From positions 50,895 to 114,894 of the IMG/VR virus record IMGVR_UViG_2706796139_000001: a DNA stretch of 64,000 nucleotides; one strand, given 5' to 3'. This stretch comes from Pseudotevenvirus miller. Its lineage: Duplodnaviria; Heunggongvirae; Uroviricota; Caudoviricetes; Straboviridae. Position numbers and translations under genes: made by a program. The notes under the pieces are model-generated. The model searched no databases. It was not told where the DNA came from and was given only the letters and a program-made list of their open reading frames with translations. This document shows, in pieces, positions 7,994 to 51,320 of this stretch (its first letter is position 1; each line of letters begins with the position of its first letter).

Positions 7994-8071
7994 AAAAAGC
8001 CCCTTGCGTAAGTGAGGGGCTTTTGTTATTGTACACACATCGAAACGAAACAGACAAAAGGAACTACGAAA
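7994..8071 (+). promoter_or_regulatory. PeSL-like cassette: terminator hairpin carrying a -35 (TTGCGT), a -10 (TATTGT) and a conserved leader
   Basis: aaaaagccccTTGCGTaagtgaggggcttttgtTATTGTacacacatcgaaacgaaacagacaaaaggaac...ATG. Unit repeated 10 or more times in the window. Confidence 0.55.
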
Positions 8072-8326
8072 ATGGCTAGAACAATCAAAGATTTCCACGA
8101 TGACCAGATTATTTCTCATGTGATGAATGGTCGTATGATTCTGGTTCAGGATGGTGAAGATACCACTCTGATTGTCGAAAACGTAGTTCACTACAGCAAC
8201 AGCAGTTTAGAAGGCATGTTCAAATGGTTGTTGCGCCAGCACAAAGCAGAGAAAAGCAGTCTCCCAGCACAGTGCAAAGCCCACGCAAAAAACCTGGTTG
8301 TCGTTACTAAAATGAGAATGCGTTAA
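8072..8326 (+). CDS. hypothetical protein (84 aa)
   Basis: ATG 8072 downstream of the conserved leader. The listed 8012 ORF is an upstream extension through the promoter. Confidence 0.5.
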   Translation: MARTIKDFHDDQIISHVMNGRMILVQDGEDTTLIVENVVHYSNSSLEGMFKWLLRQHKAEKSSLPAQCKAHAKNLVVVTKMRMR

Positions 8327-8418
8327 AAATTGCCCCTTCGGGGGCAAATAATAGTTGCATTAAATCCTGGTTGTGATACATTACACACATCGAAACGAAA
8401 CAGAGAAAGGAACATACC
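8326..8418 (+). promoter_or_regulatory. PeSL-like cassette (hairpin, early promoter, conserved leader)
   Basis: ttgccccttcgggggcaa hairpin, then ...cattacacacatcgaaacgaaacagagaaaggaacataccATG. Confidence 0.5.
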
Positions 8419-8688
8419 ATGAACATCGATAAAGAACTCGAAGGAAAAGTAATCAACCTGGCAGACCGTGCGCGTTTTGAAAAGCTGGCTAATGGTGGTG
8501 AATCTCTGGGTGATGCAGTAGCATTATTCGAAAGACTTCGTGTTAAACGTGTTGTAGATGGCTGGGTTATTGCTCTCCCTGTCGCAGATGAAGACAAAGC
8601 GGTATATGACCCAGTTGCCGATTCATGGGATATCGCAATCTGTCTGGTTAACATTGAAGTAGAACTTTGCTTCGAGGAAGAAAAATAA
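8419..8688 (+). CDS. hypothetical protein (89 aa)
   Basis: ORF behind a PeSL leader. Confidence 0.5.
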   Translation: MNIDKELEGKVINLADRARFEKLANGGESLGDAVALFERLRVKRVVDGWVIALPVADEDKAVYDPVADSWDIAICLVNIEVELCFEEEK

Positions 8689-8692
8689 TTGA

Positions 8693-8759
8693 TTAAACCC
8701 CTTGCACATCGCGAGGGGTTTTGATACAGTACACACATCGAAACGAAAGGAGAAACATC
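8693..8759 (+). promoter_or_regulatory. PeSL-like cassette
   Basis: aaaccccTTGCACatcgcgaggggttttgatacagtacacacatcgaaacgaaaggagaaacatcATG. Confidence 0.5.
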
Positions 8760-9083
8760 ATGAAAGTTATGCACACTGCGAATCAACTTCAAAACGGCAA
8801 CTACGCGATCCACGATGCTATCGGTGCGCTGGTTGGGGTTTATCTTCCTGGTAGCAAATACCTCGAAGTTAGTGGGAATACCTTTACTGATGTTGAAAAC
8901 ATCGAAGCAGCAATGGAAATCATCGGTGAAGATCCGAATCTTCGTTGGTGTTGTGCGAAAACTGGTTTTGATGCTGCATGGGGTGCTACTCCAGAACAGG
9001 CGCGAGAAAACTGGGAACATCAGCAAATGTTCTTTGCGCATAAAACCCCATTCAATTATGACGGGAGTCACATAGCAGCATGA
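8760..9083 (+). CDS. hypothetical protein (about 107 aa)
   Basis: Starts MKVMHTANQLQNG behind a PeSL leader. Confidence 0.5.
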   Translation: MKVMHTANQLQNGNYAIHDAIGALVGVYLPGSKYLEVSGNTFTDVENIEAAMEIIGEDPNLRWCCAKTGFDAAWGATPEQARENWEHQQMFFAHKTPFNYDGSHIAA

Positions 9084-9388
9084 AAGAGCTAAATCTATCA
9101 AAAGAAGAAGTTGAAAAGCGGATTACCGAAGGACTTGAAGTTATCAAGTCTATCGACTGGGGAAAGGTGATTGATTCAATGCCTGATATCCCTGATACGA
9201 TTTGCCTTAATTGTGGGCGATCCGTAATGGTTGGAAAGTGCTGTGATAATCAGAATATCGTTATCATGGACAGGAAAGAAGTTTCACCGGAAGTGTGGGA
9301 TCAGATTCAAGAAATCATCAAAAACCCACCGGAACCGACGAAACGTTTACGCGAACTTATGAGCAGGACACCACGTTATGAAAAATGA
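9080..9388 (+). CDS. hypothetical protein (102 aa) with CxxC...CC motif
   Basis: ATGA-coupled ORF containing ICLNCGRSVMVGKCCDN. Confidence 0.5.
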   Translation: MKELNLSKEEVEKRITEGLEVIKSIDWGKVIDSMPDIPDTICLNCGRSVMVGKCCDNQNIVIMDRKEVSPEVWDQIQEIIKNPPEPTKRLRELMSRTPRYEK

Positions 9389-9755
9389 ACCAAGTAAGAC
9401 TGTGCGCCTTATCCGTTGGGAAGGTAACGAACTCCGTTATGAAGACGGCGATCGTGAATTCGTTCATGAAATGCTGGCGCACAATCTGGGATTGAAAAAC
9501 GCTAACCTTGTGCAGATGCAGCAGACAGCAGATCCCGACACATGGCAATGCGTCATTGTTGAACTGAACCCTAACAAGGAATACACAGAAGATGAACTCT
9601 TTGTGCTTGTTCAGGACGTTCCAGCGCGTCAGAAATGCTTTATGATCGACATGCCACGGGAAAACTATGAGAACATCAAGAAAGCCCGTCAGAAGCCCAT
9701 ACACAACGTATTTGATTTGTTTATGGGCTATCATGAGGAACCGGAAACGGCCTAA
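9378..9755 (+). CDS. hypothetical protein (125 aa)
   Basis: Overlaps the upstream gene's stop. No recognised domain. Confidence 0.5.
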   Translation: MKNEPSKTVRLIRWEGNELRYEDGDREFVHEMLAHNLGLKNANLVQMQQTADPDTWQCVIVELNPNKEYTEDELFVLVQDVPARQKCFMIDMPRENYENIKKARQKPIHNVFDLFMGYHEEPETA

Positions 9756-10855: not shown

Positions 10856-10915
10856 TAGACATCCTCCCTTTATTCTATTTACTAAATAGTAAATATCGGG
10901 ATACTTGAGGCGATT
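10856..10915. promoter_or_regulatory. divergent late-promoter-like region (TAAATA boxes in an imperfect palindrome)
   Basis: tatttactAAATAgTAAATAtcggg between divergent gp27 and gp28. Resembles the T4 late promoter TATAAATA. Confidence 0.35.
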
Positions 10916-13221: not shown

Positions 13222-13232
13222 GGGAAATTTAT

Positions 13233-14318: not shown

Positions 14319-14326
14319 GGGGAATA

Positions 14327-15210: not shown

Positions 15211-15217
15211 GGTTAAT

Positions 15218-17655: not shown

Positions 17656-17864
17656 TTCATTTCCTTTTCGATTGCGTCGATGATATGGAGAACATAACCA
17701 TTCAATCTTTCGGCTTGTTCAGCGGCTTCGATCATACCGTAACGAGGAACTTCTAAAACGTCGAAACCTTCGATCGGGTTGCTTTCGATATCAACGATGA
17801 TATAGCTTTCACCGATTACCGCACCTTTTCTCCAGTCTTTTACGAATTTCATTTTAGCGTTCAT
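17652..17864 (-). CDS. hypothetical protein (70 aa)
   Basis: First ORF behind the PeSL at 17865..17944. Confidence 0.45.
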   Translation of the reverse strand: MNAKMKFVKDWRKGAVIGESYIIVDIESNPIEGFDVLEVPRYGMIEAAEQAERLNGYVLHIIDAIEKEMK

Positions 17865-17944
17865 TTTCTCGTTCCTTTTGTCTGTTCCGTTTCAACACCC
17901 CCAATATACAAAAACCCCTCGCGTTATGCAAGGGGTTTTTTCGA
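17865..17944 (-). promoter_or_regulatory. PeSL-like cassette (minus strand)
   Basis: Reverse complement reads aaaaaccccTTGCATaacgcgaggggtttttgTATATTgggggtgttgaaacggaacagacaaaaggaacgagaaaATG. Confidence 0.55.
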
Positions 17945-18595
17945 TTAACTGAATTTATTGTATAGGGTGAACTTAATACCCATATTATTCAGTGCTTTAC
18001 ATGTTGCTTCCAGGTCGCTAGGTGCAATCTCGACAACATACATTGCTTGTTTTAGCACAGGAACCGTTTCTGATTCTTCAAAAGATGTAAGGGTAGGTTT
18101 CACAACTTCCGGTTCCTTGACTACCTTTTTCTTCTGGTCGAACGATTCTTTGAACTTGTTGATGCGCACCAACATATCATCGATCAGTTCTGTATTCGCA
18201 CATTCAAACCGTTTGGTCTGTTCAAGCATACTTGTAATCTTTCCGTATGTTGTGCGTCTGGTAGTTTCCGTATACTTTGGATCTTCATAGCGATTGATAT
18301 TTTCGATAATCGCGTAAACATGCCCCAGGTTAGCACGGTCAAAATATGCGATAAGATGACCTCGCTTGAACACAAACATATACGGAACGTTGCCTACAAT
18401 ATAATGCGTTGCAGTTAACGCGCAATCCGAATCAAGCAGAAGATTAACCGCGTCGAAGTAAGGATAGATCTTGATATGAGTCTCAGGGATGCGAAAAACT
18501 TCTTCTTTGAAGTTCTTCGCACTTCTGTTGATCTCGTCCAGAGTCTTACCCATCATGGATGCAATGATTTCGATTTTTTTAGATACATAAGCCAT
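17945..18595 (-). CDS. hypothetical protein (216 aa)
   Basis: ORF with no recognised domain. Confidence 0.5.
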   Translation of the reverse strand: MAYVSKKIEIIASMMGKTLDEINRSAKNFKEEVFRIPETHIKIYPYFDAVNLLLDSDCALTATHYIVGNVPYMFVFKRGHLIAYFDRANLGHVYAIIENINRYEDPKYTETTRRTTYGKITSMLEQTKRFECANTELIDDMLVRINKFKESFDQKKKVVKEPEVVKPTLTSFEESETVPVLKQAMYVVEIAPSDLEATCKALNNMGIKFTLYNKFS

Positions 18596-24391: not shown

Positions 24392-24670
24392 TCAGTGTCC
24401 AAACACACCACGAATTGATTCAGCGAAAGCGTAAAATGCTGGGTTGTTTTCTTTCAGCATCGCTTCTGATTTCAGAAGATAATCGCTTTTGAACTTAGTA
24501 CCGAACAGGCAGTAAGAGAAAGAGCGATCCCACATGAAGCAATTGTAATACTCACCACAACGAACTTCTACCCAAACAGAGGCAGGATTAGAACCTTCGG
24601 CATACTCTTTCAGGAGGTTGTATTTCGCATCAGCACCAGGAAAACCAGCCAGCAAATCGTTGTAAGTCAT
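24392..24670 (-). CDS. hypothetical protein (92 aa)
   Basis: ORF behind a PeSL-variant leader (24671..24741). Confidence 0.45.
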   Translation of the reverse strand: MTYNDLLAGFPGADAKYNLLKEYAEGSNPASVWVEVRCGEYYNCFMWDRSFSYCLFGTKFKSDYLLKSEAMLKENNPAFYAFAESIRGVFGH

Positions 24671-24741
24671 GATGTGTTCCTTTTCGGTTTCGTTTCAACA
24701 AGGACACTGTATTATAATTCAATCATCATTGCAAGCACTTT
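24671..24741 (-). promoter_or_regulatory. PeSL-variant early promoter and leader (minus strand)
   Basis: Reverse complement: ...gaatTATAATacagtgtccttgttgaaacgaaaccgaaaaggaacacatcATG. Confidence 0.4.
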
Positions 24742-24996
24742 TTAAAAAAGATGCGTTAAATGCCCTGCATTGCTGGGATATTCTACGTAATCACCACGGA
24801 AGATGTTCAAATCTTTGTCAAATTTAAACCCTTGACCTTGAACATCTTCATGGCGCGACACATAAGAAACTCCATATTTTTCAAGGTCTTCCATATACAT
24901 TTCAGTGATTCTCTTCGCCTTATCCATCCCGCGCCCCTCGAATCGAGAACGTCGATAATGTGTAAGAAGAAACGCGTATAATTTTTCGTATGTCAT
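24742..24996 (-). CDS. hypothetical protein (84 aa)
   Basis: ORF. Confidence 0.4.
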   Translation of the reverse strand: MTYEKLYAFLLTHYRRSRFEGRGMDKAKRITEMYMEDLEKYGVSYVSRHEDVQGQGFKFDKDLNIFRGDYVEYPSNAGHLTHLF

Positions 24997-27437: not shown

Positions 27438-28444
27438 TTGTAGTACCCCACAACATGATCACGATATACACGTTCAATAAAGTCGTCCCAGAACTCGCGA
27501 TCAACCTCTTTCGGATAGGTTGATACTGCTGCAAGTCGTTCGACTTCGCCCATAACTTCTTCCAGTTTTTCCTGAACAAAACTGAACGGTTTCGTTCCGG
27601 CTTTGACTTCTTTTAAAAGCTGGCTCTCTTCCAGAGGATATACGATATCACCATGTTTGTAAATGCTGATAAGCTGTAAGCCCCCGCGCAATGCGTGAGA
27701 AAGCGCTTTCCAGTCGATACCGTTGTTGGCTTCTGCCTGTCTTGCTCTTTCACCGTATTCATCCCAGAGTTTATACACGGATTTTTTCATTTCCGCAACT
27801 GTGATTGTCGATTGGAACTTACGCCCCAACACTTCGTAGAAGTCCTGACAACCCGCTTTCTGTGTTGTGTCGGTAACGAATCGACAGAACTCGTTGGTCG
27901 GGAACTTGTCTGACACTTCGCCAACTTTAACGCGGAATTCAGTTAATTGCGCCGCACGTCCAGAAGGATGACTAACCCACTCTTTACGAGTATCTTCAAG
28001 CCCCTGCAACACATCATAGATTTCACGCAGTGCAGCCAGGCGAGAACCTTTAACGCCATACTTCGCGGCTTGCTTACGAACATAACCGAACAGACCAGTT
28101 AATTCTGTAGTGTAGAAACGCCAACGGTTAGCGCGGATATACTGCCAGATTTCGGAGTTAGCGATCAGCTTACTATCTTCAGCATGAAGCATATCGAGCG
28201 CTACGGTATCACCATCACACGCAAGGCTAATGAACTTAGGCAGACTATACAACTGACGGTCAATGTCGTCTACGGTGTTTTTAGAGCTTTTATCGCCCGT
28301 GCTCGTGTCGATAGTCTTAGGGGCTTTACCCAGCAGAATATCGCGTGGATGCGGGAGAAAGATCCCTTTATAGTCTTTGTCGCTTGTCGGTGTGTTCAGT
28401 CCATACAGGTGAGAACCGAACACAGTTTCCATTACAATTTTCAT
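27434..28444 (-). CDS. pol-beta superfamily nucleotidyltransferase (YcgL/RlaP-like predicted NTase)
   Basis: ETVFGSHLYGLNTPTSDKDYKGIF matches the minimal NTase signature GS-x10-DxD. A third acidic cluster DGDTVALD follows, then a helical C-terminal domain. 336 aa. Confidence 0.65.
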   Translation of the reverse strand: MKIVMETVFGSHLYGLNTPTSDKDYKGIFLPHPRDILLGKAPKTIDTSTGDKSSKNTVDDIDRQLYSLPKFISLACDGDTVALDMLHAEDSKLIANSEIWQYIRANRWRFYTTELTGLFGYVRKQAAKYGVKGSRLAALREIYDVLQGLEDTRKEWVSHPSGRAAQLTEFRVKVGEVSDKFPTNEFCRFVTDTTQKAGCQDFYEVLGRKFQSTITVAEMKKSVYKLWDEYGERARQAEANNGIDWKALSHALRGGLQLISIYKHGDIVYPLEESQLLKEVKAGTKPFSFVQEKLEEVMGEVERLAAVSTYPKEVDREFWDDFIERVYRDHVVGYYK

Positions 28445-29946: not shown

Positions 29947-30131
29947 TAATCAGCCAGCCTTATATTGTTTGGATCAGGAACGAATGTATCTTTCTGGGTA
30001 ATCATGAACACCAGGAAAGCAGCGACTTCGGGATCTTCAATCACATTGAATTTGCGATTACCTTTCCAACGTACCGCGATTTTACCATCATCGAGTTTTT
30101 TGATTTCGGCTACTTCTGATTTCTTGCTCAT
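29946..30131 (-). CDS. hypothetical protein (about 61 aa)
   Basis: Starts MSKKSEVAEIKK after the PeSL leader. The listed 92 aa ORF reads through the promoter cassette. Confidence 0.4.
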   Translation of the reverse strand: MSKKSEVAEIKKLDDGKIAVRWKGNRKFNVIEDPEVAAFLVFMITQKDTFVPDPNNIRLAD

Positions 30132-30200
30132 AATTACCTCCTTCGTTTCGATGTCCCTAATATAGCAAAAGCCCTCACGCGAACGCAAGGGCTTTTTAAT
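30120..30200 (-). promoter_or_regulatory. PeSL-like cassette (minus strand)
   Basis: Reverse complement: aaaaagcccTTGCGTtcgcgtgagggcttttgcTATATTagggacatcgaaacgaaggaggtaattATG. Confidence 0.55.
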
Positions 30201-34315: not shown

Positions 34316-34520
34316 GTTTAGAACGTTCCTCTGCAATAGCATCTTCTACCGCGTCTTCAACTTCCTTTTCAACGAACGCGATAATGTCATCAACCATGTT
34401 ATTGATATATGTCATGTTCAGGTTGCGTGAATCTGGATCGTCTTCTGCTGCATAGTCCTGGTAAAGTTCTCCCAGTTCTTTCAGCTTATGTTTTAACACT
34501 TTTTCTTCTTGATGTCTCAT
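34308..34520 (-). CDS. hypothetical acidic protein (70 aa)
   Basis: ORF. Confidence 0.4.
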   Translation of the reverse strand: MRHQEEKVLKHKLKELGELYQDYAAEDDPDSRNLNMTYINNMVDDIIAFVEKEVEDAVEDAIAEERSKHG

Positions 34521-35005
34521 AATTCCACCTTGCGCATATCAACCGAAGGATCGAAGTGTACCACGATGATCGGATAGTCACCTGTACATTCATCAATGAT
34601 GCGTTTAATGTGTTCCCAATCTCCCCCAGCAAGTCCCGCGCCGATAAGAGGGGTAACTATAGGAAATTGTTTAGGACACGCCCTAGCGCTTTCCACTGCA
34701 CTTTCAAAGCAAGTTTTAATCGCATCGTAATCAACTTGCGGACCAGCACCCCAGAATTTAAACTGGGTATAGGCATTGAATACCATACGACCATCCTCTT
34801 GAACATAAACAGAGTTACGGCCCAACTTGTTCTGATTGCCTTTCATCGTCATTGCATCAGCTTTGAACGCATTAGGAATTTTATGTTTTACTTCTTTTGC
34901 GATACCCGCACCCATGTTACAGAAGCAGTTGCACCCGTGGATCAGGTGTACGTCACGACGAAGGAACAATTCAACCGCGTTCCCTTTAATCTCTTTGATA
35001 ATCAT
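34517..35005 (-). CDS. macro domain protein (ADP-ribose binding/processing, YmdB-like)
   Basis: HGCNCFCNMGAGIAKE ... TPLIGAGLAGGDWE motifs, 162 aa. Confidence 0.8.
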   Translation of the reverse strand: MIIKEIKGNAVELFLRRDVHLIHGCNCFCNMGAGIAKEVKHKIPNAFKADAMTMKGNQNKLGRNSVYVQEDGRMVFNAYTQFKFWGAGPQVDYDAIKTCFESAVESARACPKQFPIVTPLIGAGLAGGDWEHIKRIIDECTGDYPIIVVHFDPSVDMRKVEL

Positions 35006-35571: not shown

Positions 35572-35973
35572 TTACTCTCCCAACACGTAAACAAAGCGGT
35601 CTTCGATTGCATCGTTAACACATTCGTAAATTCCCCCAGCACGTACCGCTTTACGAATGCCAGATTTTACGATGTTCATGATCTCTATGTGGCTACCCCA
35701 TACATTCAGATTGAAGTATAGGTCACATTCGATCGGATAGTCGTCTACATCGCGATACACATCATCGCTTTCATACACAAACAGTTTGCGCTTTTCTTCA
35801 CCGTATTCGAAATAAATGTTAAATGCTTTCATACTGTCTTTATCAACAGTGATTTGGAGAATTTTAACATTAGGTTGATTTTTGAGTTCGGATAGAACTG
35901 ATTGGATAACACTCAATGCGTTTCGTTTAATGAGTCCGCATTTTCCGACAATAACTCGATGTGATGTACTCAT
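35572..35973 (-). CDS. hypothetical protein (133 aa)
   Basis: ORF. Confidence 0.45.
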   Translation of the reverse strand: MSTSHRVIVGKCGLIKRNALSVIQSVLSELKNQPNVKILQITVDKDSMKAFNIYFEYGEEKRKLFVYESDDVYRDVDDYPIECDLYFNLNVWGSHIEIMNIVKSGIRKAVRAGGIYECVNDAIEDRFVYVLGE

Positions 35974-36006
35974 GATTTAATCCTCAATAGTTGGTATACC
36001 CATAAT

Positions 36007-36040
36007 AAAAAAGCCCCTGCAAAAATGCAAGGGCTTTTGA
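36007..36040 (-). terminator. rho-independent terminator (minus strand)
   Basis: aaaaaagcccctgcaaaaatgcaagggctttt hairpin downstream of 36041..36688. Confidence 0.5.
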
Positions 36041-36688
36041 TCAAATAATTTGCTTTTCTTCTAACAGTTTCGCGGTATGGTTAACCATGCGAGCATACTC
36101 ACGGGCTTCTTTCTTAGTATACTTGAAGCCAGCATTGTAACTCGCGAGCGCCTTTTTCAAGTCGCCTTTGTGGTAATCAAGCCAGTATTCCAGTTCATGA
36201 ATGGCAAACTTAGAACCTCCCCGAAGGGATTCGAGCTTATTGATTACTACGCGTTTGGAATATGATTTATCCATCCGTGCGGAAGCACTGTTTACAGTGA
36301 CTTGCCAACAGCCATAAGCATGATGACCTTTTTTGCCCTTTCCGGTGTTCTCACATGCGCGAGACTCGATCCAGGCAATAGCCGCTAAATGATATCCCAA
36401 ACGTTTCGATTTTTCCGTTTCAACAGGCTTTGCAGTTTTTAGATCATAGTCGTTTCCAACTCTGAAAGCATACTCCAAAACCTTTTTCTGCTTTGGTGTA
36501 ATTTCATCCAATTCCTTGACATATGCAGGGGCATTGGCTGGCGCTTTCTTGATCACTGTTGCTTGTTGTAGCGGTAGTGTTGACTTTACAGCAGGAAGTT
36601 CTTCAATAAATTTTCCAAGCGGATCAGTCGTTGCGTGACCAGAAAAAGAGCATAAGAAAATGCTGGTCGCTAAAATAATTTTCTTCAT
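36041..36688 (-). CDS. secreted lytic transglycosylase (SLT/lysozyme-like domain)
   Basis: Signal peptide MKKIILATSIFLCSFSGHA. The catalytic Glu motif is HLAAIAWIESRACENTG. 215 aa. Confidence 0.55.
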   Translation of the reverse strand: MKKIILATSIFLCSFSGHATTDPLGKFIEELPAVKSTLPLQQATVIKKAPANAPAYVKELDEITPKQKKVLEYAFRVGNDYDLKTAKPVETEKSKRLGYHLAAIAWIESRACENTGKGKKGHHAYGCWQVTVNSASARMDKSYSKRVVINKLESLRGGSKFAIHELEYWLDYHKGDLKKALASYNAGFKYTKKEAREYARMVNHTAKLLEEKQII

Positions 36689-42698: not shown

Positions 42699-43852
42699 TA
42701 TTTCAACTCCACCGCGTATACATCAGTTTCGGGGGCTTTGTGTACGCGCATATCTTTACCGCATACTGCATAAGCCGGACAGTTACGACAACCGTTATGA
42801 TCCTTATTACCGATCAGTTCATTACGGAACTGTTTGGTTTTCGGATGTTCCCAGATATCCTTAATGAAATCGTTCGCTTCCAGGACATTCAAACCTTCTT
42901 CCCAACCACCTTCAACCCAGCGTTCGGTAAACGAACAAGGGAAGAACTCGCCTTTCTCGTTGATGTACGAGCTAAACATGGTTGCTTCACAATCTTCGGC
43001 ATACTGTTTGTACTGTTCGAAGTTTGGGTGTCCTTCCATCGCTTCAACGAAAGCGGGGGCTGAACAGCTATCGAAACCAAATCCTACACCAGAATCAAGG
43101 CAGTATTCAACAAGTTTTTTGTATTGTTCGCGGGTAACAGTATCCCAGTTCTTACCGCGTCCCTTTTGTTTCAGCCCCAGGAACACAATCGCATTGACTT
43201 GTTTCAGGCGCGGATCATTCTTCACAGCGTCAACCACGTTAAACGCGTCATCATAGGTTTTAGAGCTAACCATGAAATGAAGGTTGATCTGCTGTTGTCC
43301 TGCTTCTGACAGGTTCGCTACCGAGTCGAAAGCGACATCGAAGCCAGCATGTTTATAAACCGATACCGCAACAGCCCCAGCAACCGCAGCCAAACGCGCT
43401 GCAACGTCTTTTGATACATCGGCAATGGTAAGGTTCGGCACAATGCCTTTAGAACGCGCATAGGCCATCATATCGAACATATCAGGGTTTGTTTGTCCCT
43501 GTGCATCAGCACCGAGGGCGCATTGAGTCAACCAGGGCATTTTATCAATGATAGATTTGAACGATTTCAGATCCATATTGTAGCCGTTAGGGTTGTTAGA
43601 CTTGTAACAGAAACCGCATAGCTTACCAGCGGGGCCATTACATTTCGTGGTGATCTCAATATCGAGAATTTCAGGGAAAGGCGCGTATGTCGGATCGCTT
43701 GCAAAGGTTGTACCCCAACGAGCGAATTCGCCAGTGTCAACATTGAAATTGTAGTTGTACCACTTAGAGCGAGCAAAGCGCATATTACCCTGCTGGTAAA
43801 TCATCAGCGAAGGGGCTTTCATTACAGTTTGTGCGCGGTCAATAATATCCAT
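42698..43852 (-). CDS. radical SAM-like enzyme with C-terminal Cys-rich (SPASM/twitch-like) domain
   Basis: DIEITTKCNGPAGKLCGFCY resembles the radical SAM core (T..CN..C.YC) but with Cx7Cx2C spacing. The C-terminal half has 7 Cys, including GCRNCPAYAVCG. Start uncertain (MDIIDRAQ or upstream). Confidence 0.55.
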   Translation of the reverse strand: MDIIDRAQTVMKAPSLMIYQQGNMRFARSKWYNYNFNVDTGEFARWGTTFASDPTYAPFPEILDIEITTKCNGPAGKLCGFCYKSNNPNGYNMDLKSFKSIIDKMPWLTQCALGADAQGQTNPDMFDMMAYARSKGIVPNLTIADVSKDVAARLAAVAGAVAVSVYKHAGFDVAFDSVANLSEAGQQQINLHFMVSSKTYDDAFNVVDAVKNDPRLKQVNAIVFLGLKQKGRGKNWDTVTREQYKKLVEYCLDSGVGFGFDSCSAPAFVEAMEGHPNFEQYKQYAEDCEATMFSSYINEKGEFFPCSFTERWVEGGWEEGLNVLEANDFIKDIWEHPKTKQFRNELIGNKDHNGCRNCPAYAVCGKDMRVHKAPETDVYAVELK

Positions 43853-43862
43853 GATATAGTTC

Positions 43863-44069
43863 TCAAAATTTAACGTGGGATTGGAAAACAGCACGAGCAA
43901 GGTTTTCGCTATCGAACGGGATTGATGTTCCATGGTCTTTGCTGTCAATGTTAACGCGCCAGAACTCACTAGACCCGTTTTTGGTGGAGTAATGCATCAG
44001 CGTTACCGTCTTATTCTTTTCCAGGAAGGTGCGTTTATCAATCTCTGTTTTTATTTCGTGCTGCATCAT
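43863..44069 (-). CDS. hypothetical protein (68 aa)
   Basis: ORF upstream of the radical SAM gene. Confidence 0.35.
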   Translation of the reverse strand: MMQHEIKTEIDKRTFLEKNKTVTLMHYSTKNGSSEFWRVNIDSKDHGTSIPFDSENLARAVFQSHVKF

Positions 44070-44326
44070 TTTACACTCCGTTTCAGTTTACGTTCGTCAG
44101 CCAGTTCTTTTTTGTACGTTTTGATGTACTTCCCGTTAAGGATTCGAAGCTGTTGGAAAACTTTGTTGCACAAAGCACGTTTCGCTTTGTATTCCGGCGT
44201 ATTGCGGATTGATTCGATCGTCATACCCATTTCGTTTTTAGGGTAAGCGCTCAACTCCCTGCCGATCTCTCTATGCCAGTTGCTTAACTGGTCACGCTTT
44301 GCTTTGTACTCTTCAAAAGTTAACAT
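44066..44326 (-). CDS. hypothetical basic protein (86 aa)
   Basis: ORF. Confidence 0.4.
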   Translation of the reverse strand: MLTFEEYKAKRDQLSNWHREIGRELSAYPKNEMGMTIESIRNTPEYKAKRALCNKVFQQLRILNGKYIKTYKKELADERKLKRSVK

Positions 44327-44391
44327 AACAATCTCCGGTTTCGTTTCTATGGGTGTAAGATAACATCATCCCACACCCAGCGCAAGCGATT

Positions 44392-44592
44392 TTATTTTCC
44401 GTAAAGAACACAATATTCTTTATATTTTTCACGGGCTTTTTCTTCATTACTAAAGGAAACTCCCATTCCAAAATCAGAACCTTCGAACGTAACATCCCAC
44501 GATTCACACCCATCTTCCGAATAATAGGAAAGTGTTATTTTACGATCTTCAAGAACAAGTTGTTCAACAACAATATCAATTTCAGTAGTCAT
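44392..44592 (-). CDS. hypothetical protein (66 aa)
   Basis: ORF. Confidence 0.35.
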   Translation of the reverse strand: MTTEIDIVVEQLVLEDRKITLSYYSEDGCESWDVTFEGSDFGMGVSFSNEEKAREKYKEYCVLYGK

Positions 44593-44731
44593 AGTTCATT
44601 TCCATAATCTTTCGCTGCATCTTCGGGGGTTGCGTCCAGTCGATAAAGCTCAACGGCTAACGGACTGGGTTTGATTTCGCGGTTCAGGATCTCACTGATA
44701 CCGCGAAGGAATTCGATATAAGGACGGAATC

Positions 44732-44983
44732 TCATTTGATACGTACCGCGTTAAAAGCCTGGTTGCGCAGTTCATAAGCCTGTTCAAGCTGTTCAGTAGT
44801 GAACAGAGGACTATCGGTGTTAGTGGTGAAACTGCAAATGGTTTTGTTGTCGGCGTTGACTTCTTCGACAACGATTTCATAACCCCAGATCCCGCTATAT
44901 TCACATTTCACGTTCCGGTACTTGATGTAAACTGCTGCAACATCTTCTTTTTTGTAGTTCCGGCTTTTGTAGATGATTTCCAT
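44732..44983 (-). CDS. hypothetical protein (83 aa)
   Basis: ORF behind a PeSL-type leader at 44984..45054. Confidence 0.4.
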   Translation of the reverse strand: MEIIYKSRNYKKEDVAAVYIKYRNVKCEYSGIWGYEIVVEEVNADNKTICSFTTNTDSPLFTTEQLEQAYELRNQAFNAVRIK

Positions 44984-45054
44984 GATATCCTCCTTCGTTT
45001 CGATGTGTGTACAATAACAGATCAGGGTTATCGAGTTTTAGCAATTCGTGCTAA
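44984..45054 (-). promoter_or_regulatory. PeSL-type promoter/leader (no obvious hairpin)
   Basis: Reverse complement: ...tgttATTGTAcacacatcgaaacgaaggaggatatcATG. Confidence 0.4.
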
Positions 45055-45333
45055 TTATGACATTTTCTTAGCGATTTTCCAGGCGGCTTTGAACGCCGGA
45101 ACATCTTCAATATCAACCCAGAAACCAGAACCGAAACCATCATTGTAGCAAGGGCAACCGTCGCAGTAGTTTTCCCAGGTCATCACTTTACCACCAACAG
45201 AAGCACCAGTTTCCATCGCACGTAATGCATCTTCAACCTTTTCCAGTTTTTCTGCGTTGTCGTCATAAATGATGAAGTACCATTTGCCGTTGTATTCGTT
45301 ACCAAGTTTGATTGCTTCGCGAACAAGTTTCAT
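45055..45333 (-). CDS. hypothetical protein (about 92 aa)
   Basis: Starts MKLVREAIKLGNEY behind a PeSL leader. The listed 119 aa ORF reads through the promoter cassette. Confidence 0.45.
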   Translation of the reverse strand: MKLVREAIKLGNEYNGKWYFIIYDDNAEKLEKVEDALRAMETGASVGGKVMTWENYCDGCPCYNDGFGSGFWVDIEDVPAFKAAWKIAKKMS

Positions 45334-45424
45334 GATGATTTCCTTTCTCTGTTTCGTTTCGATGTGTGTAATATAACAAAAGCCCTCACCATAGGCAAGG
45401 GGTTTCTTTAACAAAAAGTGCTAT
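45334..45424 (-). promoter_or_regulatory. PeSL-like cassette (minus strand)
   Basis: Reverse complement: aaagaaaccccTTGCCTatggtgagggcttttgTTATATTacacacatcgaaacgaaacagagaaaggaaatcatcATG. Confidence 0.55.
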
Positions 45425-46027
45425 TTAATAGTATCCAGGATCTTTGAAGTGTGCTTTCACATATCGCAGAATTTCATGCAACATCTGCGTTTGCTCATGC
45501 CCTCGTTGTGAAGCCATATCGATCATGACGCGAGTCATTTCGACGTTCTCCAGGCTGGCTATACGATGTTTTAAGGCTTCGTTTTCCTTTTCCAACTCAA
45601 CCATACGGTCATATGCTTTGATGCGCTCCAGAGGCATATCAGGGCGCTGTTTGAGGACACGGGCGCGTGACACTTCGCATTCGTGATTTGCTTTCCAGTG
45701 ATCACGTTCACCAGCAATTTTATCGTTCTCCTGGTGTAGACGTACAATCTCTTTAAGGAGGCGTTCAGTGGTATCGGGATCAAACGAAACCATGTATTGC
45801 ATCAGGGATTGCAGCCACAGATCCTCTTGTACCGCCTGTAACGCTTTAGGCCCAATAATGGTAAACGCGCGTTTCTTCATGTTGCTACCGCAACCGTAGT
45901 TAACGTTACCCGTAATCGAACCTGGTTGATTCGTACCATCCCATTTGTCACCGATAACAGGTTTTACTTGCTGAATAGCACGATTCAGCATTTCGAATTC
46001 TTCATCTAAAATCATTTCATATCCCAT
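45425..46027 (-). CDS. hypothetical protein (200 aa), coiled-coil C-terminus
   Basis: ORF. Confidence 0.45.
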   Translation of the reverse strand: MGYEMILDEEFEMLNRAIQQVKPVIGDKWDGTNQPGSITGNVNYGCGSNMKKRAFTIIGPKALQAVQEDLWLQSLMQYMVSFDPDTTERLLKEIVRLHQENDKIAGERDHWKANHECEVSRARVLKQRPDMPLERIKAYDRMVELEKENEALKHRIASLENVEMTRVMIDMASQRGHEQTQMLHEILRYVKAHFKDPGYY

Positions 46028-46416
46028 AATTCATATTGTGAGCGAAGGATAGCGTAAAGACTACCGATATGGATTGTATCTACCGGACACTGGAACAGAT
46101 CCCCGCGCATCATGTTAAACTCGATATCGTTACGTTCAACATAGTTACCGATCATCGATGTCCATCCCATCACCAGGTTGTAACCATCTTCCGATAACCC
46201 ATAAGCCAGCTTAACAAGAATGCAACGCTTATCAGCCAGTTCTACGCGCATATGGGTACTGGTATGAGTGACCTTGTTCGGGAATCTGCGAAACATTTTA
46301 GTAAGGAGTTTGGCGGTTTCAATATTGAACGCCAGTTCTTGATCCTTACTGGTCTGGTTATCATGACGACGATCCAGATATTTCTTCATTTTCGGATTCA
46401 GATTCACATGTTGCAT
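46012..46416 (-). CDS. hypothetical protein (134 aa)
   Basis: ORF. Confidence 0.45.
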   Translation of the reverse strand: MQHVNLNPKMKKYLDRRHDNQTSKDQELAFNIETAKLLTKMFRRFPNKVTHTSTHMRVELADKRCILVKLAYGLSEDGYNLVMGWTSMIGNYVERNDIEFNMMRGDLFQCPVDTIHIGSLYAILRSQYELWDMK

Positions 46417-46598
46417 AATATATCCCTCACAGGTTTATAACGTTCTTTTCCAGTGCCGTTGCATGAACTGCATTTTGGCGATCCGTGGTTATCATATCGC
46501 CCAGACCCATTACATGCAACACATTTCCGTAATTTCCAGCCATACACGAACCGCATGTAATAATCGGTTCGTGCTGCCTTGCGTTCGTGGAAGTTCAT
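46404..46598 (-). CDS. zinc-ribbon protein (64 aa)
   Basis: CVACNGSG...CSSCNGTG. Confidence 0.4.
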   Translation of the reverse strand: MNFHERKAARTDYYMRFVYGWKLRKCVACNGSGRYDNHGSPKCSSCNGTGKERYKPVRDILCNM

Positions 46599-46819
46599 CA
46601 GTTTGCTTCTTTGTAAACAGCAACCATCCAGTAACCCATAGATTCAGTGTAGTACACGTCAACCCGTGGCATGTTACGATAAACGTAAGCGGCTTTGTAC
46701 GCTTCCAGTTCAGTTTTCACACCGAAAGAGAACCCAGTGAGATAGCTGGAATATTCCAGGACTTCACAACCAACAACTTTAGACAGACGTTTAGAAGCAA
46801 CCGCGCTTGAAATACCCAT
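46598..46819 (-). CDS. hypothetical protein (73 aa)
   Basis: ORF behind a PeSL leader. Confidence 0.4.
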   Translation of the reverse strand: MGISSAVASKRLSKVVGCEVLEYSSYLTGFSFGVKTELEAYKAAYVYRNMPRVDVYYTESMGYWMVAVYKEAN

Positions 46820-46899
46820 TTTTGAATCCCCTTTCTGTGTTTCGTTTCGATGTGTGTAATATACAAAAAAGCCCCCTGCATTGCAAGAGGCTTTTTGAA
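46820..46899 (-). promoter_or_regulatory. PeSL-like cassette (minus strand)
   Basis: Reverse complement: aaaaagcctctTGCAATgcagggggcttttttgTATATTacacacatcgaaacgaaacacagaaagggg...ATG. Confidence 0.55.
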
Positions 46900-47859
46900 T
46901 TATTTTGGTAATTTTTTGATTAATGCTTGTAAGTCGTTGATTTTAGAAAACAGTTCATCGCTATATCGCATCAATTCCTGTCTGCGTTTTGCAGCCCATG
47001 AAACCAATGTTTTTGCATCATCAACACCATAAGTGTATCCATCAGCGGATAGACGAATGATCGCACGAGAACCGTAGTCAACATTTGCATGTTCGATTAA
47101 AAACTTCACCGCTTCGAGAAGTTCGGAATCTTCCTTACTGACTAGAACACCGTTATCATCAGGAAATTCGTTTTCATCATGAACACTCGCAAAATCAAGG
47201 TCGATATAATCATCCTGATTCACCTGGCGGCGCGTGTTGTCTTCGAGACTTTCAATCTGTGAAACCATAGTTTCTACCGGATCTCTTTCAATTGGTTCTC
47301 TGTCGGTTCCTACTTCTTCCAGGAACATCAACAACCAACCAGGGATCAACGAATCAAAAGAACGCTGAATAGGGCTTGCATGGTCACTACCCAGTATTTT
47401 CAACGCACAACCGTCTTTAGTAGCGGTGTGGATATAAATGACGTTACGGTCACGCATACGGCGGCTACCATGAGAAAGGAAGCGACGTAACGAGGTGTTA
47501 TGTCCATAGCGACTCAGATCCAGATTACACAGAGAATCGATAGCCCCACGGTTAGCAATCCGGTAGCGCTTGAATGTTTCAAATCGCAGATTTTCGGTAG
47601 TTACTGGCTTAAATTCTTCGTAAAGAATATAATATTCTTTCGGAATCTCGCGATGGAGAACTCGCAATTCACCATTTTCCGAAGGAGTGAGCACAGAACG
47701 AACATTACCGTTCGCATCACAATGTACCTGCATGACTTGAGGATAATAGAACCCATTAGCCTTTATGGTGTAGTCGGGTACGCGACTCAGGCGCTTTCTG
47801 TAGTACCATTTACCAGTAACAAACGGGGTTGCAGATCCTGCTAAACTAATTGGTTTCAT
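46900..47859 (-). CDS. hypothetical protein (319 aa) downstream of the DUF262 gene
   Basis: ORF overlapping the DUF262 gene by 4 nt (operon). No confident domain. Contains HCDANGN. Confidence 0.5.
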   Translation of the reverse strand: MKPISLAGSATPFVTGKWYYRKRLSRVPDYTIKANGFYYPQVMQVHCDANGNVRSVLTPSENGELRVLHREIPKEYYILYEEFKPVTTENLRFETFKRYRIANRGAIDSLCNLDLSRYGHNTSLRRFLSHGSRRMRDRNVIYIHTATKDGCALKILGSDHASPIQRSFDSLIPGWLLMFLEEVGTDREPIERDPVETMVSQIESLEDNTRRQVNQDDYIDLDFASVHDENEFPDDNGVLVSKEDSELLEAVKFLIEHANVDYGSRAIIRLSADGYTYGVDDAKTLVSWAAKRRQELMRYSDELFSKINDLQALIKKLPK

Positions 47860-48708: not shown

Positions 48709-48711
48709 AAT

Positions 48712-48969: not shown

Positions 48970-48970
48970 G

Positions 48971-49357
48971 TTATGCCTTTGGGACAACACCGAATGCCAG
49001 AAGACCCATACGATGATCGTTATCTGCACCGTCACGGAAGAAGTAGTATTGATTGTCGGAAATATCGGTTACGGTGATACCCTCTTTCAGATACGGCAAC
49101 AGATATAACGGGATCAGCATCAAATCAGATTCACTGCTCCACTTACGGAAACCCAGATTTTTCATTTCTTCCAGTGTCAACTCGTTAGGATCGACGGGAG
49201 AAAAATCAGGTGACCCGATCAGGCGATTAGGAAGGTCGCGAATATGCTTGATTGCGAATTCAGAATCCCACGAACTGTAAGCGATAGGTTCAGCGGCACG
49301 GGTTGCTGTAGCCAGCATAATCATTTGACAGATTTGAAAAGTTGTTGATTTGCTCAT
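48971..49357 (-). CDS. hypothetical protein (128 aa)
   Basis: ORF. Confidence 0.4.
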   Translation of the reverse strand: MSKSTTFQICQMIMLATATRAAEPIAYSSWDSEFAIKHIRDLPNRLIGSPDFSPVDPNELTLEEMKNLGFRKWSSESDLMLIPLYLLPYLKEGITVTDISDNQYYFFRDGADNDHRMGLLAFGVVPKA

Positions 49358-49767
49358 GATGTATATCCCACAATTTTAGTCAGAAGGTGTCCCATAGTTT
49401 TACGCGCATGATCGCGGATTTCGCTATAAGGAACATATTTGAAACCATCCATTTCTGTAATGGTTCGACCATTCTTAACGAAGGTTGACGCACAGAAACA
49501 TTTTTCGGCTTCGGGGTAAGTATCGCCTTTATAGACAAACAATGCAAGTTTTTTCTTGCTTGTATAGTCCAAAACACCCAGGCTGATCAGTTGGTCTGGG
49601 AACACTTCAAAACCAGTTTCTTCGAAGCATTCACGAATAGCAGCATCAATATGGGCTTCGCCTTTTTCAACATGCCCCTTTGGGATATCCCAGTGGGGCG
49701 TTTCGGTAGCGTGACCCATTAGAATGCTGCCGTTATTCAGAAAGAGAATACCAGCAGACAATTCCAT
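49354..49767 (-). CDS. nudE: Nudix hydrolase (NudE-like)
   Basis: Nudix box GHVEKGEAHIDAAIRECFEETG. About 137 aa from MELSAGILF. Confidence 0.75.
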   Translation of the reverse strand: MELSAGILFLNNGSILMGHATETPHWDIPKGHVEKGEAHIDAAIRECFEETGFEVFPDQLISLGVLDYTSKKKLALFVYKGDTYPEAEKCFCASTFVKNGRTITEMDGFKYVPYSEIRDHARKTMGHLLTKIVGYTS

Positions 49768-49768
49768 A

Positions 49769-49996
49769 TTATACCCCTTTAGAGGTAAACTGTTCGTCAT
49801 ATGCGGCAAGCGCATTATCTGCACGTTTTTTCGCTTCGGTATGTCCACGACTATCATTGATAGCGCGACGATACATTTCGACCCAGAACACGCGACGTGT
49901 ATCTTCGTTCGCTTCAAACAGTTTAATATCGCGGTATACGTTTTGCTCGTTGATCATTTGAGCAAGTTGCAGGTCATGTTCAGATTGGAAAGTCAT
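49769..49996 (-). CDS. hypothetical protein (75 aa)
   Basis: ORF. Confidence 0.4.
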   Translation of the reverse strand: MTFQSEHDLQLAQMINEQNVYRDIKLFEANEDTRRVFWVEMYRRAINDSRGHTEAKKRADNALAAYDEQFTSKGV

Positions 49997-50256
49997 AATT
50001 CACCTATTTCTTTCAGTTCAGTTTTGAGTTTATCGAGGGTCGATTGGTATTGTATCATATTTGTTCCGTCAGCGAAACGGTAATAATACAGTGTACGGGT
50101 TTCGTTGATGTCTGCCAGCACTTGCTGATCAAGCGTTGCAGGGTCAATCCCGAACGCCATTTTGAACATCATTTCGGCGCTGTCGGCAAAACCGTGCGCG
50201 TAGAAAGCGAAACCCAGCTTAGGATCGAACTGCAACAAGGATACTTTAGCCATAAT
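49993..50256 (-). CDS. hypothetical protein (about 87 aa)
   Basis: Starts MAKVSLLQFDPK. Confidence 0.4.
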   Translation of the reverse strand: MMAKVSLLQFDPKLGFAFYAHGFADSAEMMFKMAFGIDPATLDQQVLADINETRTLYYYRFADGTNMIQYQSTLDKLKTELKEIGEL

Positions 50257-50539
50257 ATTCTTCGTAGTCCTCGCAGTCTGGGAGATACGTTTCACAGAAC
50301 ATGCACAGCGTGAAGAAAGTAGGCTGGCGAATCCCTGGGTTATCCGGTAGATACATCCAGAACGTGTTAGCAAACACGATGAAGGTTTTCAGGTTTTCGA
50401 CAGTGATTTCGCTGATACCGTCATAACCGGATTGAGCAATTGCACGTTCCAGGGGAACAGGGTATTGCTCGCAATATTCGGCGTAATGTTCACTCAATAA
50501 CATTGAGTTAGCCGCTTTTACAAGATCGATGATTTTCAT
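50246..50539 (-). CDS. hypothetical protein (97 aa)
   Basis: ORF. Confidence 0.4.
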   Translation of the reverse strand: MKIIDLVKAANSMLLSEHYAEYCEQYPVPLERAIAQSGYDGISEITVENLKTFIVFANTFWMYLPDNPGIRQPTFFTLCMFCETYLPDCEDYEEYYG

Positions 50540-51006
50540 GCTTTGACATATTCCACTTTAACAGGTTTGGCGATAAGGTGATCTTTGGTGTAACCTTGTC
50601 CGTCGCAAACATCACAAACGATTTTGAAATCTTCCATTTGGTCGACCCATCCAGAATCAGGCAATCCAGAAGGGTACGTGTTGAAGGTTTTAACACTGTA
50701 TCCTTTTCCATCACACTTAGGGCATTTATACGGGTATTTCGATTTGATCGCACTATACAATTGACCCAGTGTGGTCGAATGATCAAAGTGTATAACAAGT
50801 GCTTCAACGTCAGCAATGCGCAATTCGTTTGGCTTGATCACAGTAAACACATTTGAAGGTATGTTTGGACGCATAATATATTTCTCACTTAAAGAATTTT
50901 TTGATGAAAGAGAGGAACAATCCACCGCCGAACATGATCCAGTATCCCGCGCCGTCACCGTGAAACAGGACGTAAACCGCGACACCATAACAAAAGATTT
51001 CTGCAA
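50536..51006 (-). CDS. protein with two DnaJ-type CxxCxGxG zinc-finger motifs
   Basis: CPKCDGKGY and CDVCDGQGY. Start uncertain. Confidence 0.4.
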   Translation of the reverse strand: MQKSFVMVSRFTSCFTVTARDTGSCSAVDCSSLSSKNSLSEKYIMRPNIPSNVFTVIKPNELRIADVEALVIHFDHSTTLGQLYSAIKSKYPYKCPKCDGKGYSVKTFNTYPSGLPDSGWVDQMEDFKIVCDVCDGQGYTKDHLIAKPVKVEYVKA

Positions 51007-51114
51007 TATTCAGTAAGTTTCTCATAACTCCCTCCTTTGTCTACACCAGGTATTTTACCAGAAAATAGACTACTGTCAACAACAAAGTTTTATCAACCCA
51101 CTTATCACCAGTCA

Positions 51115-51252
51115 TTAGTAATCCCCTACAGGTTGAGAAGATGCAACGCTCAGGATACGGAAAGAGCATTCATTCCACTTGCAATAAGTTTTCGCACAGT
51201 GAACACTACCTTTCATCACAAACCCGTTTGAGAACACCAGCCAGTAAAGTTT
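51115..51252 (-). CDS. small hypothetical protein (about 45 aa)
   Basis: Starts MKLYWLVF behind a PeSL leader. The listed 80 aa ORF reads through the promoter cassette. Confidence 0.3.
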   Translation of the reverse strand, partial: KLYWLVFSNGFVMKGSVHCAKTYCKWNECSFRILSVASSQPVGDY

Positions 51253-51320
51253 CATGATTGTCTCCTTTGTTTCGACACCCCTAATATAACAAAAGCCCCT
51301 GCACGAATGCAAGGGTTTTT
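51253..51320 (-). promoter_or_regulatory. PeSL-like cassette (minus strand)
   Basis: Reverse complement: aaaaacccTTGCATtcgtgcaggggcttttgTTATATTaggggtgtcgaaacaaaggagacaatcATG. Confidence 0.55.

Follow-up and report, generated by a model that had tools for sequence, protein, structure and literature searches.

The window analysed here, 64,000 nucleotides (nt) of Citrobacter phage vB_CfrM_CfP1 (CfP1; NC_031057/KX245890; Straboviridae, Pseudotevenvirus, RB43-like; record 50895-114894, at 100% identity), carries 12 copies of a repeated terminator-plus-promoter cassette. These units are real, and they belong to the known class of PeSLs, elements in which an early promoter is fused to a stem-loop. 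We consider it likely that, in this RB43-like member of the T4-type phages, they act as composite regulatory cassettes of PeSL type, working by the mechanism proposed below. Their most interesting aspects are a conserved transcript start and the sharing of the cassette across phage families.

We anchored the census on the -10 hexamer and identified the 12 cassettes within 7976-51325 of the window, in line with the original prediction of at least 10 copies; the full CfP1 genome (180,219 bp, assembled from the record and used for all genome-wide counts) has 20. A search for CACACATCGAAACGAAAC allowing up to three mismatches returned seven window matches (8034+, 8384+, 8732+, 44355-, 45009-, 45368-, and 46856-), each with 0-2 mismatches, against a chance expectation of 0.07 from shuffles, and seven matches were reached in 0 of 100 shuffles. 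The profile of these seven copies recovers variants of the GGGG/GGGA…GAAAC type at ~30194- (E = 1e-6), 17937- (E = 0.011), and 51318- (E = 0.1). Generic promoter and terminator scans of the window gave totals not above those of shuffles, and only the individual cassette matches are informative. Every window cassette is co-oriented with an ORF (open reading frame), with a same-strand ATG 21-33 nt after the predicted start (12/12). The ORFs are short and hypothetical; three cassettes stand in tandem (8039/8389/8737) and four within 44350-46851.

The cassettes have a common order of parts, of which each copy has some or all (Table 1): a stop-codon and AT-rich block, a GC hairpin with a -35-like TTGCnn, a T-tract giving TGn, the -10 hexamer, a 6-nt discriminator, (A/G)U(C/U)GAAACGAAAC, a Shine-Dalgarno (SD) sequence, and ATG. 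Upstream lie either A-runs or, in the fullest copies, the block TAAATAGCACTTTTTGTTAAA, whose TAA is the stop codon of the preceding ORF and is followed by a TAG in a second frame; SD and ATG are present downstream in 12/12. TTGCnn sits in the 5' arm or loop of the hairpin, whose T-run furnishes a spacer of 17-18 nt, and it is found at this distance from a TAnnnT -10 in 11 of the 12 window copies; the copy at 45004 has an extended -10 and no -35. Hexamers seen at -10 include TATATT, TATTGT, TACAGT, and TACATT, and the discriminator is ACACAC or a G-rich variant (GGGGGU, AGGGAC). Some of the features previously ascribed to all copies turn out to be partial. The extended -10 (TGn) occurs in 8 of 12 and not in the other four; of the proposed GGAG/GGAA before the ATG, GGAG accounts for 5 of 12 SDs, and the remainder comprise GGGG and GAGG as well as GGAA.

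The same holds for the hairpin, which had been described as present in every copy with TTGC in its 5' arm. A GC stem is found in 9 of the 12, with a T-run after it in 8 of these 9, and the 63-nt upstream segments with a stem fold at -13 to -22.5 kcal/mol. Hairpins were reported by the scan tool at 7995-8024, 45401-45383, 46896-46866, and 51315-51296, and the depositors, independently of that tool, annotated terminators at eight cassette sites. The placement of TTGC is right for most copies, but the hairpin of the 8389 cassette (8330-8347) lies upstream of the -35 and lacks a T-run, and hairpins are absent at 45004 and 24699 and weak at 44350. These last three copies are comparable with "degraded" PeSLs without a good stem, described in Comeau 2014 (PMC4122927). 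Since an A-run precedes the 8330-8347 hairpin and no T-run follows it on the + strand, it looks like a terminator for the opposite strand only. The annotated ORF gp252 (39 amino acids; 8307-8426, -) runs antisense across this hairpin and the promoter of cassette 2, and its annotation is probably spurious.

Precedents from mapped promoters place the transcript start, by analogy, at the A or G seven nt past the -10. In the T7 record (NC_001604), A1 is annotated as starting at the A in GATACT-TACAGCC-A-TCGAGAGG, and A3 at the A in TACGAT-GTACCAC-A-TGAAACGACAG; the phi1/RB49 PeSLs read CATAAT-ACACCC-ATCGAAACGAAAC; and Nolan 2006 (PMC1524935) describes positions -3 to -1 as C-rich and finds the RB49 consensus consistent with 5'-end mapping. 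With this start ACACAC would be an untranscribed discriminator, and the conserved RNA would be only 5'-AUCGAAACGAA(AC). The conserved leader of the original prediction therefore needs to be trimmed: AUCGAAACGAAAC is likely leader RNA, but the ACACAC before it (variant GGGGGU/AGGGAC) would be the 6-nt discriminator upstream of the start, and the leader is not in all copies, the hairpin-promoter cassette at 35995- being entirely without GAAAC. GAAAC always begins 10 nt after the -10 hexamer, a fixed register; its distance to the AUG is variable (leaders of 21-33 nt), and where the leader is short, the SD takes the place of the second GAAAC.

AUCGAAACGAA is a U-poor, purine-rich initial transcribed sequence, and the leaders are unstructured in single-sequence folds (minimum free energy [MFE] 0 to -2 kcal/mol). 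Initial transcribed sequences modulate promoter escape, with purines and GA/GG near +6 favourable (PMC5961368), and the sequence from +1 to ~+20 alters phage-promoter output >10-fold via escape kinetics (T5 N25; Kammerer 1986, cited in PMC5961368). Predicted accessibility of the ribosome-binding site (RBS) averages 0.646 with the native +1..+13 and 0.592 with random genomic 13-mers, and is higher in 12/14 cassettes. We rejected the idea that the leader enhances translation by pairing with 16S rRNA: the duplex (-5.9 kcal/mol) is weaker than in 500/500 shuffles, and the longest exact complement is 7 nt. AUCGAAACGAAAC (e.g., window 8039-8051) is unusually non-complementary to E. coli 16S rRNA (-5.9 vs. 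a mean of -9.6 kcal/mol for 500 mononucleotide shuffles), which may be selected inertness or a mere consequence of odd composition.

The original prediction saw in the leader an RNA operator: AUCGAAACGAAAC or GGAG would be recognized by a RegA-like repressor, an endonuclease of the RegB kind cutting at GGAG, or some other protein, and the early mRNAs would thereby be co-regulated post-transcriptionally. In CfP1, record 27969-28331 is annotated as RegA ("early gene translational repressor"), there is GGAG in the 5 of 12 SDs, and the motif is single-stranded and accessible in all predicted leaders. RegA is known to act at AU-rich sites that overlap the AUG, but the conserved block is U-poor and, at +1..+13, is separated from the AUG by a varying distance of 8-20 nt or more. 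We found no RegB homolog in CfP1 by tblastn of T4 RegB against the whole genome (best E = 1.7) or as a Pfam domain in the genes beside vs, the T4 regB slot, although a very divergent RegB is possible. The slot itself is occupied by gp200 (187 amino acids), which has no Pfam match; gp201 (36041-36688, -), which corresponds in position to T4 vs.1, carries an SLT transglycosylase domain, and gp205 (34517-35005, -) has a Macro domain (E = 2e-7), like T4 Tk.4. As to a structured leader RNA, alifold of eight aligned copies shows the terminator as the sole conserved structure, and no Rfam family matches the leader at gathering score. The Rfam scan at gathering thresholds reported no family anywhere in the window, not even tRNA; a tRNA-Met (CAT) at 596-673 (+) was found by ARAGORN and is also annotated. 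Furthermore, the motif is locked to the -10 and start and not to the AUG, it is abundant in T1-like Drexlerviridae and present in a Vibrio phage outside the T4-type family, and a related start occurs in T7 A1/A3. To our knowledge, T1-like phages and this Vibrio phage are not expected to encode RegA or RegB. Leader MFE is near 0, and GGAG occurs in a minority of SDs. Overall, we give an RNA operator very little credence.

Distribution across phages bears on what maintains the block. The 41-nt promoter-plus-leader query matches at >=99% identity in 167 phage records and with >=80% coverage in 231, and the 41-mer occurs at 5-9 places per genome in the listed RB43-, KP15/KP27-, and Cronobacter/Enterobacter-type phages. 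A search of 5,426 complete E. coli genomes found no match to it, and we rejected a host origin or mimicry of the cassette on these grounds. Full-length cassette matches are also found in many 44- to 52-kb T1-like siphoviruses. In an alignment of 14 sequences from Pseudotevenvirus, Slopekvirus, Krischvirus, an Aeromonas T4-like phage, four Drexlerviridae genera, and Vibrio phage helene, the sole run of invariant columns is CATCGAAAC, directly after the -10 plus 5 nt.

Because the query for this alignment contained the motif, we built an independent, motif-free set with the upstream block AATAGCACTTTTTGTTAAA alone as query in IMG/VR. The block retrieves at least 119 stretches, mostly ~50-kb contigs, with 181 occurrences, 170 of them unique, and base frequencies were taken from the 160 unique T1-like (Drexlerviridae) cassettes with a -10, chosen by AATAGCACTTTTTGTTAAA only. 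The -10 hexamer lies at one offset in 147/160, and the start re-emerges position by position (n = 160): C-1 84%, A+1 92%, U+2 66%, C+3 71%, G+4 72%, A+5 81%, A+6 72%, A+7 81%, C+8 60%, G+9 56%, A+10 69%, and A+11 72%. T is depleted 4-fold at +3..+15 (0.84 vs. 3.4 expected), and an SD and start codon are present in 146/160, with a median leader of 26 nt. A stem-loop lies between block and start in 85% of the 151 cassettes with the common -10 offset (mean MFE -11.1 kcal/mol vs. -4.6 for shuffles). PeSL-like elements are therefore present in T1-like phages too, and they have this same boundary block and start.

Drexlerviridae genomes hold many copies, on both strands, of AATAGCACTTTTTGTTAAA plus stem-loop, -10, and CAUCGAAACGAA (IMG/VR contigs of ~50 kb, L021-L139), with further T1-like cassette stretches at L014 1160-1630, L015 1498-1930, and L143 603-1060. 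In these T1-like copies 22 nt separate the block from the -10, a distance shorter by one helical turn than in the CfP1 hairpin cassettes, and there is no recognizable -35. In Escherichia phage tunus (L014), ~600 bp of non-coding, repeat-rich DNA (540-1150) with AT-rich tracts and CCGC/GCGG motifs lies directly upstream of the first early-region cassette and could be an origin or control region.

Could the identity of the leaders be functionless, a by-product of recent duplication, gene conversion, and horizontal cassette spread, with an arbitrary sequence after the -10? Such concerted evolution would fit the class-A copies, which are identical over 18-19 nt, the near-identical 41-mers in so many phage records, the movement of cassette-flanked modules between families, an indel junction within the leader (described below), and the PeSL crossovers that Arbiol 2010 mapped between the -10 and ATG (PMC2839356). 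We regard it as unlikely as a full account, since the same start accompanies differing -35s, spacers, and hairpins (8389 vs. 8039, and the genome start at 12944, outside the window) and orthologous cassettes change their hairpin and keep the -10 through +13 (CfP1/KP27/RB43; CfP1/Miller/RB16). The exact -10 register is likewise kept in phi1, Aeromonas, Vibrio, and T1-like phages, and the motif emerges from a set chosen without reference to it.

The T1-like copies also speak to a DNA operator, in which the tandem GAAAC-GAAAC (+4..+13) would be the binding site of a phage or host protein that turns promoters of this class off or on at the early-to-later transition, in place of MotA. Overlap with +1..+13 is typical of repressor sites, the pentamer is repeated in tandem, and the near-perfect identity of the block goes beyond a purely compositional need; moreover, RB43 and RB49 lack MotA and middle promoters (PMC1524935), and a second CfP1 early-promoter family with a different start (GUAGACAACGAAA) would permit class-specific control. 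But unrelated phage families would all need the same factor, for which no candidate protein was found, and a 5-bp repeat period is unusual for dimeric DNA binders. The T1-like copies degenerate position by position (CAACGAAAC, CATCAACAAC, CATAGAAAC) yet stay U-depleted, which looks more like a graded sequence preference than a discrete operator, and no host regulon uses the block, because the 41-mer is unmatched in the E. coli genomes. We hold this explanation to be highly improbable. The second family reads aaaGTTGTTGACA-N16-TAATAT with a start like GUAGACAACGAAA(C/G), its inverted repeat spans the -10 (e.g., CGGGTAGTCA…TGACTCCCG), and it is closer to the TTGACA-type PeSLs of RB49/phi1. Its -10s end at window ~40319, ~41006, and ~51052 (-) and at genome 21594- and 151393+, and the two families might be differently timed.

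Comparison of close relatives ties the cassettes to gene shuffling at base-pair level. Between the ligase gene and the gp251 homolog, RB43 has one cassette and CfP1 has cassette–gp253–cassette; the difference is exactly one ORF (gp253) plus one cassette (cassette 2), a 350-bp unit. RB43 matches the left CfP1 copy to AAAGGAAC and the right copy from AT(A/C)CCATGAAC on, and this switch places the indel junction inside the repeated leader (shared leader/SD). We read the junction directly off the sequences, as MAFFT had placed the RB43 tail on the left copy. RB16 homology (blastn, 43800-47300) starts at window 46918, ~20 nt upstream of the 46851 cassette, and an extra RB16 ORF adjoins the 45004 cassette. 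In Miller, the replaced segment ends at the upstream block of the 45363 cassette.

Similar boundaries are seen across families. Klebsiella Weberviruses encode proteins homologous to CfP1 gp181 (DUF5417/Frd.1-like), with 63-65% amino-acid identity, and CfP1 45440-44965 is collinear with Webervirus phiwza: an AGCAC(T/A)TTTTTGT(T/C)AAA-type cassette, the DUF5417 ORF, and a AGCACGAATTGCTAAA-type cassette, the 45004 subtype being found downstream of the DUF5417 gene in Webervirus phages as well. Homology stops just past the second start region (…CATCGAAAC…AGGA), with none upstream of the first block, and Webervirus IMGroot has a different ORF from phiwza in the same slot. These sequence comparisons suggest cassette-bounded gene exchange across phage families, of which we found no report in a limited literature search; string searches of the literature for CGAAACGAAAC and AGCACTTTTTG gave unrelated papers only. 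The modular gene shuffling expected from the original prediction is thus borne out by the RB43 indel, the Miller and RB16 breakpoints at cassette edges, and the module in common with a T1-like phage. A wider reading, which we offer tentatively and think rather doubtful, makes the cassette a pan-family mobile regulatory unit of enterobacterial phages instead of a trait of the T4 lineage, a "plug" for the exchange of small early genes between Straboviridae and Drexlerviridae, whose 12-nt start is a specific functional signal, beyond composition, read by conserved host machinery (RNA polymerase in initial transcription, or some 5'-end factor). The module would then consist of a stop/UP block AGCAC(TTTTTGTT/GAATTGCT)AAA, an optional stem-loop, the -10, and the start CA-UCGAAACGAA.

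In the mechanism we propose, TAAATAGCACTTTTTGTTAAA would close the preceding ORF, its AT-rich tract being UP-element-like, and the GC hairpin with its T-run would halt transcription arriving from upstream. The same DNA would supply the -35 and, via the T-run, the spacer and TGn of the extended -10, so that host sigma70 RNA polymerase would restart immediately. The conserved start would belong to the promoter module and most likely favours start-site choice (C-1 A+1) and efficient escape, and the block would give whatever ORF follows an unstructured, non-pairing leader of 21-33 nt and, therefore, context-independent translation. Because it is repeated, the block would also provide homology for cassette recombination, which would move, delete, or replace small ORFs between copies and between phage families.

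The anatomy, copy number, fixed -10 register, unstructured leader, cross-family conservation, and indel and mosaic junctions at the cassettes are observed, and make this PeSL-type mechanism our preferred reading. Several points weigh against it. Each functional step in CfP1 and RB43, from start site and promoter and terminator activity to the benefit for escape and translation, is extrapolated from sequence and from the RB49/phi1 and T7 precedents. Three copies have weak or missing hairpins, the gain in RBS accessibility is modest and fails in 2/14 cassettes, and the CG steps at +3/+4 and +8/+9 are not obviously optimal for escape, YG near +6 being unfavourable (PMC5961368). Exact identity over 13-19 nt among copies exceeds what a compositional constraint needs, and part of it may reflect concerted evolution or binding by some factor. 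Finally, in the KP27 record the same elements carry the label "putative middle promoter", which the depositors based on MEME alone and which bears on their temporal class. We rejected a MotA-dependent middle promoter: a Mot box is (a/t)(a/t)(a/t)TGCTTtA at ~-30 in place of the -35, whereas in the cassettes TTGCnn stands at the -35 distance of sigma70 promoters and a TGCTT box is missing. RB43 was found to have neither MotA nor middle promoters (PMC1524935), and the KP27 label is probably wrong.

Table 1. Parts of the 12 window cassettes (window coordinates; predicted +1 with the sequence that begins there or the leader)
Cassette	Span	Strand	Upstream block and hairpin	-35	TGn and -10	Discriminator	Predicted +1	SD, ATG (gene)
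Cassette 1, downstream of DNA ligase	7976..8074	+	block TTAAATAGCACTTTTTGTTTAAA; hairpin 7995-8024; annotated terminator 7999-8020	TTGCGT 8004-8009	TGT; TATTGT 8027-8032	ACACAC	8039 (AUCGAAACGAAAC)	SD AAGGAA; ATG 8072 (gp253)
Cassette 2	8325..8421	+	hairpin 8330-8347, no T-run, displaced upstream	TTGCAT 8354-8359	TGA; TACATT 8377-8382		8389	ATG 8419 (gp251)
Cassette 3	8690..8762	+	hairpin ~8698-8718	TTGCAC 8702-8707, within hairpin	TGA; TACAGT 8725-8730		8737; leader AUCGAAACGAAAGGAG	ATG 8760 (gp250)
17896, variant	17862..17945	-	hairpin 17935-17915	TTGCAT 17931-17926	TATATT 17908-17903	GGGGGU	G 17896 (GUUGAAACGGAAC)	ATG 17864
24699, hairpin-less variant	24668..24745	-		TTGCAA 24734-24729	TACAGT 24711-24706		G 24699 (GUUGAAACGAAAC)	ATG 24670
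30152, variant	30129..30200	-	hairpin 30192-30171	TTGCGT 30188-30183, 18-nt spacer	TGC; TATATT 30164-30159	AGGGAC	30152 (AUCGAAACGAAGGAGG)	ATG 30131
35995, no GAAAC leader	35971..36040	-	hairpin 36034-36012, annotated terminator	TTGCAT	TATTAT 36007-36002		35995 (ACCAACUAUUGAGG)	ATG 35973
44350, variant	44324..44395	-	weak stem-loop	TTGCGC 44385-44380	TGT; TATCTT 44362-44357	ACACCC	44350 (AUAGAAACGAAAC)	SD GGAG; ATG 44326
45004, T1-type	44981..45058	-	block TAATTAGCACGAATTGCTAAAA, 22 nt from -10; no terminator hairpin		TGT; TATTGT 45016-45011		45004 (AUCGAAACGAAGGAGG)	ATG 44983
45363, full	45331..45432	-	block TAAATAGCACTTTTTGTTAAAGAA; hairpin 45401-45383	TTGCCT 45398-45393	TGT; TATATT 45375-45370		45363	ATG 45333 (gp181, DUF5417/Frd.1-like)
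46851	46817..46900	-	hairpin 46896-46866 (14 pairs)	TTGCAA 46886-46881	TATATT 46863-46858		46851	ATG 46819 (gp177)
51276, variant	51253..51325	-	hairpin 51315-51296	TTGCAT, 18-nt spacer	TGT; TATATT 51288-51283	AGGGGU	G 51276 (GUCGAAACAAAGGAG)	ATG 51255

Outside the window, the CfP1 record begins with two adjacent coding sequences of equal length labelled "RIIA" (900-3149 and 3149-5398), each preceded by an identical promoter-like stretch of ~90 nt (matches at 952 and 3201); the pair has the look either of a tandem duplication, exact over 2,249 bp, or of a misassembled record start.

At ~100 bp each, the cassettes help annotation by marking terminators and early transcription units in phages of the RB43, KP15, and T1 types, a good many of them therapy candidates, and they provide examples of ORFan insertion, deletion, and swapping resolved to the base pair. 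The suggestion that one boundary repeat is used across phage families would widen the PeSL model. As a natural standard unit that joins a terminator to a strong promoter with a fixed, U-poor start and an unstructured leader, the cassette offers a test case for the effect of the initial transcribed sequence on promoter output and could find use as a compact, insulated expression cassette.

The term PeSL (promoter-early stem-loop) comes from RB49/phi1, where it denotes an early promoter of sigma70 type joined to a stem-loop; the region upstream is AT-rich, the 3' end carries SD/ATG, and the elements cluster among ORFans. They are experimentally active as promoters and terminators, and mini-circles formed (Arbiol 2010, PMC2839356). 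They were later found in T4/PST and KVP40/nt-1 (PMC4122927), and RB43 receives a passing mention only. Judged by sequence, the CfP1 elements have all the features of this class, as had been suggested from their resemblance: a sigma70-like promoter directed toward an ORF, a stable stem-loop at or overlapping the promoter (GC stem in 9/12, eight with a T-run), repetition among small, non-conserved ORFs (20 copies genome-wide), and indels or replacements bounded by the elements (RB43, Miller, RB16, and the Webervirus slots).

With the RB49/phi1 PeSLs, the CfP1 cassettes share the early promoter with GC stem-loop, the AT-rich upstream region, the 3' SD/ATG, the many copies before small ORFans in plastic regions, and the element-bounded indels and replacements; the phi1 PeSLs also have the start block ACACCC-ATCGAAACGAAAC. 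Unlike them, the dominant CfP1 class has as its -35 TTGCnn, not TTGACA, inside the hairpin, a T-run that forms the spacer and TGn, and the TAAATAGCACTTTTTGTTAAA block. Promoter, terminator, and mini-circle activity have been shown experimentally for the RB49/phi1 PeSLs only, whereas the CfP1 cassettes are known from sequence. The T4/PST and KVP40/nt-1 sets (PeSL/PmSL; Comeau 2014, PMC4122927) follow the same concept, with hyperplastic regions and ORF swaps, but have other consensus promoters (TTTACW…TAYWAT; TTGYVH…TAWWAT) and other stem sequences, and they show that every T4-like lineage has its own PeSL flavour; the text consulted makes no mention of a conserved transcribed block or of elements outside T4-like phages.

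T7 A1/A3 resemble the cassettes as strong early promoters for host RNA polymerase with mapped starts at CC-A-UCGAGAGG and CAC-A-UGAAACGACAG, a CA(U) start, and a U-poor, purine-rich initial transcript; they differ in having no fused terminator hairpin and in not being repeated before individual ORFs, and the likeness, which extends over ~10-12 nt only, may be convergent. Work on T5 N25 agrees with the cassettes in that a purine-rich initial sequence favours productive synthesis (PMC5961368). That work concerns single promoters and synthetic variants, whereas here one block of 12-13 nt is kept across dozens of promoters and several phage families. Lambdoid morons are likewise self-contained promoter-gene-terminator accessory units, inserted between genes and horizontally exchanged. 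They lack a common repeated boundary sequence, whereas the boundaries of the cassettes are themselves a conserved repeat family.

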